DNA from: Escherichia coli
Lineage (GTDB): Bacteria; Pseudomonadota; Gammaproteobacteria; Enterobacterales; Enterobacteriaceae
Strand: one strand, 5' to 3'
Assembly (NCBI RefSeq): GCF_003790525.1
Contig: NZ_CP033635.1
Length of the DNA stretch: 64,000 nucleotides
Made by a program: the position numbers and the translations under genes. The notes below the pieces were generated by a model. It saw nothing but the letters and a program-made list of their open reading frames with translations, searched no databases and was not told where the DNA came from. Below, piece by piece: positions 17,419 to 18,524 of the stretch (within the stretch, counting starts at the first letter, position 1; each line of letters opens with the position of its first letter).

Positions 17419-17787
17419 CTATACCCCAAAGCTTTCGCCACAGCCACATTCATTCTGGGCTTTAGGGTTGTGAAATTTGAATATCTGATTAAGTCCTTCA
17501 CGAACGAAATCGACTTCCGTGCCATCAATAAACGGCATCGCTTGCAGCGGGACAAACAGCTTCGCACCGTCGTGTTCAAACAGCAGATCGTCTTTGTCCG
17601 GCTCGCTAACACTGTCGAGCACATAGCCAAAGCCCGCGCAGCCCGTTTGCTTCACGCCTAAGCGCACGCCGACCATACCCGGCTGCTTTGCCACCAGCTC
17701 GCGGATGTGGACAGCGGCTGCGGGTGTCAGCGTTAAGCCCTGCCAGGCGAAATCCTGTGGATTAAAGGTTCCTGAATGCATGTCCAT
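17419..17787 (-). CDS. sufA: Fe-S cluster A-type carrier SufA (122 aa)
   Basis: C-terminal CGCGESF motif; first gene of sufABCDSE. Confidence 0.92.
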
Positions 17788-17830
17788 CGATTTACCTCAC
17801 TTCATCGCTTTCAGCGTATAACAGCATGTT

Positions 17831-17850
17831 AGTGATAATGATTATCAGTT
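17831..17850. promoter_or_regulatory. Fur-box-like sequence in the sufA promoter
   Basis: GTGATAATGATTATCAG resembles GATAATGATAATCATTATC; a second palindromic Fur-like element AGATAATGATTATTATCT lies at about 17965..17985. Confidence 0.5.
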
Positions 17851-18064
17851 CAACCCAGCAAACGCAGGGGCTTTACCGTAAAACATGCTTTTTTCCTGCT
17901 TTTAATAAGCATAGACCCTGATGTGTGGGTTAACAGGCACGCTAAGAATTAGGTATCTCATTGTTAGATAATGATTATTATCTAAGGAGCATTAAGGCTG
18001 TGATGAAAAAGAAAAAGTTGTATTGAAAATGACTATTTAAGAGATAGGTAAAAAAGTGCAGCGT

Positions 18065-18135
18065 TCAGAAATAAGAAAACCCTTAAGTCTGTGCGACACA
18101 GGCTTAAGGGTTTCTACCCCATCCGGCGCTTATCT
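18065..18135 (-). ncRNA. rydB: Probable sRNA RydB with its rho-independent terminator
   Basis: Minus-strand hairpin CCCTTAAGCCTGTG/CACAGACTTAAGGG at about 18081..18112 followed by a U-run; in K-12 rydB lies between sufA and ydiH. Boundaries are approximate. Confidence 0.35.
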
Positions 18136-18335
18136 CCGGCACTCTCAGTGGCTTAGCTCTTGAAGGGGCGATAAGAATAATCTCATAAAGCTAACCCGCC
18201 GTTTTAACACAAACTGCGATTAGTATTATTTTTGAACAATATCAGGCGGGTAGATAAGCAGTATTAAGAAGGCCATCGAACCTGGACGGAGATTAATCCA
18301 GGTCGATATGGCGAACTTGCGGCATTAAGTCAGGA

Positions 18336-18524
18336 TCAATGCACGCCCAGACGCCAGGCAAAGTAGATTTCTTCTTTTAATTCAGCAGAAGAGAGAGTAA
18401 GCAGGTCAGCAAATTCAAGTTCTAGTTGTTTCAGACGTTTGAGATATTGGGCAGGTGAAAGATTGCTCTGGTCACGGCGTAAAAATTCAATGGCCAGCTG
18501 GGTGGGATCAAGTTGAGTAGACAT
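18336..18524 (-). CDS. ydiH: Uncharacterised small protein YdiH (62 aa)
   Basis: Known protein begins MSTQLDPTQLAIEFL; the ORF track's 18605 start is an upstream extension. Confidence 0.8.
   Translation of the reverse strand: MSTQLDPTQLAIEFLRRDQSNLSPAQYLKRLKQLELEFADLLTLSSAELKEEIYFAWRLGVH

Follow-up and report, generated by a model that had tools for sequence, protein, structure and literature searches.

The 548-bp intergenic region that separates sufA from ydiH in Escherichia coli carries the control region of the sufABCDSE operon together with the gene for the small RNA RydB, an arrangement which is already known from E. coli K-12 and is essentially unchanged here. The region was analysed within a 64,000-nt stretch of contig NZ_CP033635.1 (assembly GCF_003790525.1), referred to below as the window, in which it occupies positions 17788-18335, the exact gap between sufA (17419-17787) and ydiH (18336-18524; Pfam YdiH). 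Both of these genes are on the minus strand, and the order in which that strand is read is ydiH, rydB, sufABCDSE. An earlier note, made from the sequence of the window, had described the interval as a suf promoter region of about 550 bp of dense regulatory sequence, which is correct, and had placed in it two Fur-like palindromes and a terminator hairpin for RydB. We consider it highly likely that the region is made up of a rydB transcription unit, an activating region for OxyR and integration host factor (IHF), and a core promoter under the control of Fur and IscR, and that the second of the two palindromes is the flank of the IHF site.

Over 566 aligned nucleotides the window and K-12 MG1655 agree in 99% of the columns. 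Comparison with the K-12 sufABCDSE promoter showed the same -35 hexamer and the same set of elements, these being the Fur box, the IscR type-2 site (ORE-III), an equivalent of the IHF site (ORE-II) and the OxyR block (ORE-I). The two sequences differ only by a few single-nucleotide polymorphisms (SNPs) and by a 1-nt indel which begins at about 18,240; the window has A where K-12 has G at 17974 and A in place of C at 17894, with further differences at several positions near ydiH. Below the indel, adding 1,746,599 to a window position gives its coordinate in K-12 NC_000913.3, by which the first Fur-like site (17833-17847) is 1764432-1764446 and the second palindrome (17964-17985) is 1764563-1764584. 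A 721-bp query taken around the locus was 100% identical to E. coli CFSAN061771, and of the 5426 complete E. coli genomes 5421 contained it. Conservation beyond the species was assessed in 80 sufA loci from one-per-species genomes of the Enterobacteriaceae, 75 of them from outside Escherichia; the resulting profile contained 81 sequences. As a promoter in which signals for iron (through Fur), Fe-S status (through IscR) and peroxide (through OxyR and IHF) are combined, the suf control region is a textbook example. It is unchanged in this strain, and the significance of the locus extends little beyond its annotation.

The Fur-like site which the earlier note had put at 17831-17850 is the known Fur operator of suf. 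It consists of a perfect 7-1-7 inverted repeat, TGATAATGATTATCA, at 17833-17847, with 7-nt arms and no mismatch to TGATAATNATTATCA; of the two canonical forms of the Fur box (the 19-bp GATAATGATAATCATTATC and the 7-1-7 TGATAATnATTATCA) it matches the latter perfectly and the 19-mer consensus at 16/19 positions. The box is found at the same position in 80 of the 80 sufA loci, is 0.96 conserved, and occupies the spacer between the -35 and -10 hexamers of the sufA promoter. Literature and conservation locate these hexamers on the minus strand at 17853-17848 (TTGAAC) and 17831-17826 (TAACAT), separated by 16 nt. Both the identity of the -35 sequence and a spacer shorter than that of PydiU have been published (PMC8561392), as has the repression of suf by Fur (PMC4676285; PMC12594620). 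Conservation of the core promoter is 0.94-0.97, the block 17826-17853 standing at 0.97 across the 75 non-Escherichia loci. From the -10 hexamer and a 6-nt discriminator we infer that transcription of sufA starts at A17819, which would provide the gene with a 5' untranslated region of 32 nt (17788-17819, minus strand) containing the Shine-Dalgarno sequence GAGG. The GAGGT of this leader is invariant in the alignment of sufA loci.

Overlapping the -35 hexamer, at about -55 to -30, is an IscR type-2 site, AAAGCCCCTGCGTTTGCTGGGTTGAA (17849-17874, minus strand), recognized as a motif with no mismatches to AWARCCCYTSNGTTTGMNGKKKTKWA, which we take to be the type-2 consensus; at three or fewer mismatches 0.02 such matches would be expected. 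A site of this type in PsufA has been described (PMC8561392; PMC12594620), and Fur and apo-IscR are known to compete at the sufA promoter (PMC8300815; PMC12594620). With the Fur box in the spacer and the IscR site over the -35, it is at this position that the competition would take place.

The elements assigned to the peroxide response lie farther upstream on the same strand. A block with the pattern CTAT-n7-ATAG-n7-CAAT at 18012-18048 (about -229 to -193) was identified as the OxyR site by its conservation and its tetranucleotides. In non-Escherichia loci this block (alignment columns ~147-185) is 0.81 conserved in the form CTAT-n7-ATAG-n7-CWAT, and it adjoins sufA in Salmonella too, even though rydB is far upstream there. 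Between it and the core promoter is an equivalent of the IHF core, TAACAATGAGATA, at 17954-17966 (about -147 to -135, minus strand). The position of this core, its orientation and its AT-rich 5' flank are as in other Enterobacteriaceae: in 42 loci the exact core WATCAANNNNTTR occupies the homologous position, always with AAATnCATTATT on its 5' side, and the 20-nt 5' flank of this conserved core is 73% AT, against 51% in a control segment. Lee et al. are said to have placed OxyR at -236/-197 and IHF at -156/-127 in 2004, and the conserved blocks appear to fit these footprint limits. The far-upstream OxyR site has been published (PMC8593673), activation of suf by OxyR requires IHF (PMC8593673; PMC8300815), and in the current model IHF bends the DNA so as to bring the distantly bound OxyR toward the promoter (PMC8593673; PMC8300815). 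In the window, a bend at about -147 to -135 would carry OxyR from about -229 to -193 to PsufA.

The second palindrome, which the earlier note had described as near-perfect at about 17965-17985, is real and proved to be a perfect inverted repeat of the form 9-4-9, TTAGATAAT-GATT-ATTATCTAA, at 17964-17985, with 9-nt arms at 17964-17972 and 17977-17985, a better description than the shorter AGATAATGATTATTATCT at 17966-17983. It is situated some 145-166 bp upstream of the inferred sufA start and directly 5' of the IHF core, which is the side on which IHF sites have an AT-rich element, and IHF is also the published factor for this portion of the promoter. On the sufA strand its proximal arm reads ATCATTATC and is the homologue of the AAATnCATTATT (nCATTATT) flank of that core. 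Because both this flank and the position of the core are conserved, we regard the palindrome as probably the AT-rich sequence that borders the IHF site on its 5' side and thus part of a known IHF element. The symmetry itself is narrow in distribution: the palindrome was not found in any of the 75 non-Escherichia sufA loci and is restricted to Escherichia. Identity of the non-Escherichia loci to the window is 0.64 over the proximal arm and 0.32 over the distal arm, and the latter probably arose only in Escherichia. Even within the genus the symmetry decays, the corresponding sequences being CCGATAAGAATCATTATTTAA in E. albertii and TCGGTAATAATCATTATCTAA in E. whittamii, and variable in others. 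Compared with IHF sites elsewhere, that of E. coli differs in having two mismatches in its core and, in E. coli and close relatives alone, a perfect 9-4-9 palindrome as its 5' flank.

The likeness to a Fur site, for which the earlier note had counted the palindrome as a second Fur-like one, deserves closer consideration. Like the canonical Fur box, the palindrome contains inverted GATAAT and ATTATC hexamers. It lies within an iron-regulated promoter, and it gives a 12/14 match (two mismatches) to the 7-1-7 form at 17966-17980. It might accordingly act as a true Fur operator in addition to the first, if only in strains with A at 17974, a dimer being bound on AGATAAT-G-ATTATTA; Fur would then occlude the IHF site and block activation of suf by OxyR and IHF when iron is plentiful. 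Several observations count against our assignment of the palindrome to the IHF element and bear on this alternative. The 64-kb window holds five matches to the 7-1-7 form with two or fewer mismatches where 0.24 would be expected, and three of the others are upstream of plausible Fur targets, namely sufA, ydhY and ydiE/hemP, the match at ydiE/hemP being the other intergenic one with two mismatches. Because of this excess, and of the nature of several of the genes concerned, weak Fur binding at the palindrome is conceivable. In addition, the E. coli IHF core satisfies only seven of the nine specified positions of WATCAANNNNTTR.

Against a second operator stands, in the first place, the geometry. 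The inverted hexamers are 4 nt apart, whereas the spacing is 1 nt in the 7-1-7 form and 7 nt between the outer arms of the 19-mer, and the 12/14 match is obtained only in a shifted register which borrows from the spacer. Against the 19-mer consensus it reaches 14/19, which is in the chance range for this window: nine sites reach 14, several of them in coding sequence. Unlike the canonical Fur box, it overlaps no documented core promoter; it is 145-166 bp from the start, lacks conservation outside Escherichia and has lost its symmetry in E. albertii and E. whittamii. Finally, the published regulators of suf are Fur, IscR, OxyR, IHF and NsrR, and the reviews list a single Fur element (PMC4155840; PMC8300815; PMC8593673). 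We thus consider a second Fur operator unlikely, with a chance of being correct that is small; its resemblance to a Fur box would be a by-product of AT-rich composition and not the mark of a conserved operator, and we infer that Fur has no function at this position. Annotations should carry it over as a Fur site only once binding has been demonstrated.

The base on which the Fur match depends is moreover polymorphic. The SNP at 17974 lies between the two arms of the palindrome, in its spacer, and the A of the window is what yields 12/14; the K-12 allele scores 11/14 on the 7-1-7 form (hand count) and 13/19 on the 19-mer. A 57-mer with the allele of the window occurs exactly in 1979 of 5414 E. 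coli genomes (~37%), O157:H7 among them, while the K-12 57-mer, with the weaker match, occurs in 3259 of 5414 (~60%); other Escherichia species have T, C or G here on the sufA strand. One could imagine that A at 17974 creates a Fur site and with it a strain-dependent competition between Fur and IHF, an idea to which we give even less credence than to the second operator as such. If it were true, the OxyR-dependent induction of suf by hydrogen peroxide would depend on iron status in such strains, which would amount to a second layer of Fur control confined to them.

The palindrome also coincides with a promoter-like sequence. A consensus scan matched ATCACA-16-GATAAT at 17977-18004 on the minus strand, with the distal arm supplying the -10, and transcripts from it would start near 17970 and have a long leader. 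From genomic SELEX, Shimada et al. gave the same hexamers as those of a "constitutive" RpoD promoter in the sufA-rydB spacer (PMC3946193), and the RpoH holoenzyme binds that spacer in vitro (PMC5493296). SELEX peaks are of low resolution, though, and the hexamers were chosen by pattern; matches at 9/12 positions are near chance (three found in 1 kb, 1.6 expected), and neither hexamer is conserved outside Escherichia. That the palindrome marks an upstream suf promoter thus seems improbable to us, and the flank of the IHF site is the description we retain. Lrp, ArgR, SlyA and DnaA were compared by eye with the 9-4-9 palindrome, and none fits.

Upstream of the suf elements, the Rfam RydB model (RF00118) matched the minus strand from 18169 to 18109 over its full length (model positions 1-61 of 61) with a score of 81.6 bits and an E-value of 4e-19, the gathering score being 50. 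This places rydB between ydiH and sufA, as in K-12, and immediately 5' of the hairpin for which the earlier note had proposed it, neither elsewhere nor on the other strand. That note had seen a strong minus-strand terminator hairpin at about 18081-18112. The hairpin extends from 18114 to 18076 and is followed by a U-tract to about 18069; its arms (18077-18093 and 18097-18113) are 17 nt each and 94% complementary, and folded as minus-strand RNA it has a free energy of -22 kcal/mol (z = -5.7), after which the sequence continues as UUUUCUUAUUU. A simple terminator scan did not report the rydB hairpin, most likely owing to the one C.A mismatch in its stem.

By BLAST and Rfam, rydB was found in Escherichia, Citrobacter, Salmonella, Leclercia, Silvania and Pseudenterobacter; a control, Klebsiella oxytoca, gave no Rfam rydB match above the gathering score. 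In the 19 other loci with Rfam matches above that score a hairpin follows directly, and in the alignment it is within a few bases 3' of the rydB core in 24 of 24 species. It is maintained where the sequence of the stem is wholly different (e.g. CGGTCAGCG...CGCTGACCG), and also where rydB is 0.8-1.9 kb from sufA, as in Salmonella and some Citrobacter. Covariation, observed directly with RNAalifold and pair counts, is extensive: the 16 pairs of the terminator stem are 99% paired, and 11 of the 16 are changed on both sides. In all, 14 of 29 pairs covary; shuffling 500 times never reached the observed values, and sliding the register gave nothing close to them. Since the hairpin directly follows the core in 24 species, those with a distant sufA included, and covaries, the claim that it marks the 3' end of RydB is supported by these comparisons, and we interpret the structure as the intrinsic terminator of RydB. 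Stem and U-tract would terminate RydB as well as any read-through from ydiH, and the primary transcript is predicted to end in the U-tract at about 18069-18076. Measured from 18169 to about 18073 it would be ~97 nt, compared with 68 nt in the K-12 annotation and 61 nt in the Rfam model. The Salmonella rydB has been annotated as 105 nt (PMC2515195), and RepRanger lists rydB as having a Rho-independent terminator (PMC12306157).

In the Citrobacter and Salmonella loci just mentioned (Citrobacter spp., Salmonella diarizonae and arizonae; loci L017, L018, L021 and L026) about 0.8-1.9 kb is inserted between rydB with its terminator and the sufA promoter, and the OxyR, IHF, IscR and Fur blocks all stay beside sufA. 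The insert of S. arizonae contains a 92-amino acid open reading frame (ORF) on the opposite strand.

A difficulty for a RydB that includes the hairpin comes from existing annotation. The K-12 feature b4430 maps to 18114-18181 of the window and so ends before the hairpin, as does the 61-nt Rfam model, which stops at 18109. The size of RydB in the original Northern analysis is reportedly also about 60 nt. Given the K-12 end and such a size, the abundant RydB species may be without the terminator, and mature RydB could end at about 18114 with the hairpin serving only as an insulator against read-through from ydiH and rydB into the suf region or being processed off. The core itself has no U-tract, and hence no other terminator is available to a shorter RNA; the position of the hairpin in all 24 species, even where sufA is not downstream, its covariation and the 105-nt annotation in Salmonella likewise argue for its inclusion. 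A short processed form is in any case compatible with a primary transcript ended by the hairpin, and the shorter annotated RydB may be such a form or be imprecisely annotated. We therefore consider a RydB that excludes the hairpin possible but rather doubtful, and prefer the hairpin as terminator of the primary transcript. Annotators should be aware that both the K-12 and the Rfam features omit a terminator which is conserved and covarying in 24 species.

The 5' end of RydB can be approached in the same way. Conservation points to a predicted rydB promoter at 18177-18220 (minus strand), in which a marbox-like element, ATCGCAGTTTGTGTTAAAA, at 18220-18202 is separated by 19 bp from an extended -10, TGaGATTAT, at 18185-18177. 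This arrangement is common to 22 species; TG, the -11 A and the -7 T of the extended -10 are invariant, and the conserved columns upstream of rydB coincide with the specified positions of the marbox. The element has two mismatches to AYNGCACNNWNNRYYAAAY, a level expected by chance (13 such matches were found in the window, 18.8 expected), so that its weight derives from positional conservation. In class II promoters a forward marbox stands about 18-19 bp from the -10, and a class II promoter activated by SoxS, MarA or Rob is a reasonable interpretation of the rydB upstream sequence. It fits the listing of RydB among the SoxR-dependent genes of the paraquat response (PMC2064960). The position of the conserved extended -10 predicts G18169 as the start of rydB, and the Rfam model begins on this same base. 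The 5' end given for K-12 b4430 (18181), on the other hand, falls on the conserved -11 A, a conflict of which annotators should take note. The complete rydB unit would then comprise a marbox-like element and extended -10 promoter, a 61-nt core, and the terminator stem with its U-tract.

Still farther upstream is a stem-loop, ACCTGGA-n10-TCCAGGT, with a stem of 7 bp (18280-18303, minus strand). This inverted repeat lies some 30 nt past the ydiH stop codon, is conserved within Escherichia only, and has a weak terminator-like match nearby; it may be a 3' structure of ydiH or a weak terminator.

Returning to the suf promoter, one further block stood out by its conservation. The 22 bp at 17899-17920 (minus strand, about -101 to -80), CAGGGTCTATGCTTATTAAAAG, are 0.91 conserved as CAGGGTCTATGCTTAtTAAAAG in the 75 non-Escherichia loci, a value exceeded among the measured blocks by the core promoter and Fur box only. 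Few elements of the region are so well conserved, and it is outside the classical set of Fur, IscR, IHF and OxyR elements. The block reads like an extended -10 of the sigma-S type, a possible function which the following data suggest: the pattern KCTAYRCTTAA is exact at this position in 39 loci, and the window has one mismatch to it; transcription from such a promoter would be predicted to start near K-12 position 1764500. Such a match is at chance level when taken singly, and as with the marbox it is the positional conservation that lends it weight. RNA polymerase with sigma-70 or sigma-32 is known to bind the sufA-rydB spacer in vitro without activators (PMC3946193; PMC5493296 Table 3), and NsrR represses suf (PMC8593673). 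Three other candidates for the block were set aside as confident assignments. An NsrR site gave a poor hand alignment (about 5-6 of 11 per half-site), a second IscR site has the wrong CCC/GGG spacing, and a sigma-32 promoter, which would be near the approximate SELEX peak, is a poor match by eye and unconserved.

Some sites elsewhere in the window are related to those of suf. A 7-1-7 Fur match with one mismatch, TGATATTTATTATCA, is at 8126-8140, between fumD(ydhZ) and ydhY and some 250 bp upstream of the latter. Just upstream of ydiE (47133-47324), which encodes a 63-amino acid protein of the HemP family (Pfam PF10636), an array of Fur-like hexamers, AATATTGATAATAAGAATCATTGTT, extends from 47086 to 47110 and is a plausible Fur operator. 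On the minus strand, ATAACCCTCCTGTTTGCTGGTGTTTA at 48805-48830 matches the IscR type-2 motif with a single mismatch and precedes the start codon of ydiU/selO (48764) by about 40-65 bp; the ydiU promoter is the other IscR-activated promoter examined in PMC8561392.

With respect to CFSAN061771 (NZ_CP042896.1), linear coordinates are off by several kb at about 30 kb from the locus, and the span of the window thus differs from that genome by insertions or deletions. The window also contains, at 60469-62367 on the plus strand, a 632-amino acid ORF with a ShET2 enterotoxin N-terminal domain (PF07906, 1e-44) and ankyrin repeats, inside which there is a chance-like Fur match at 62268.

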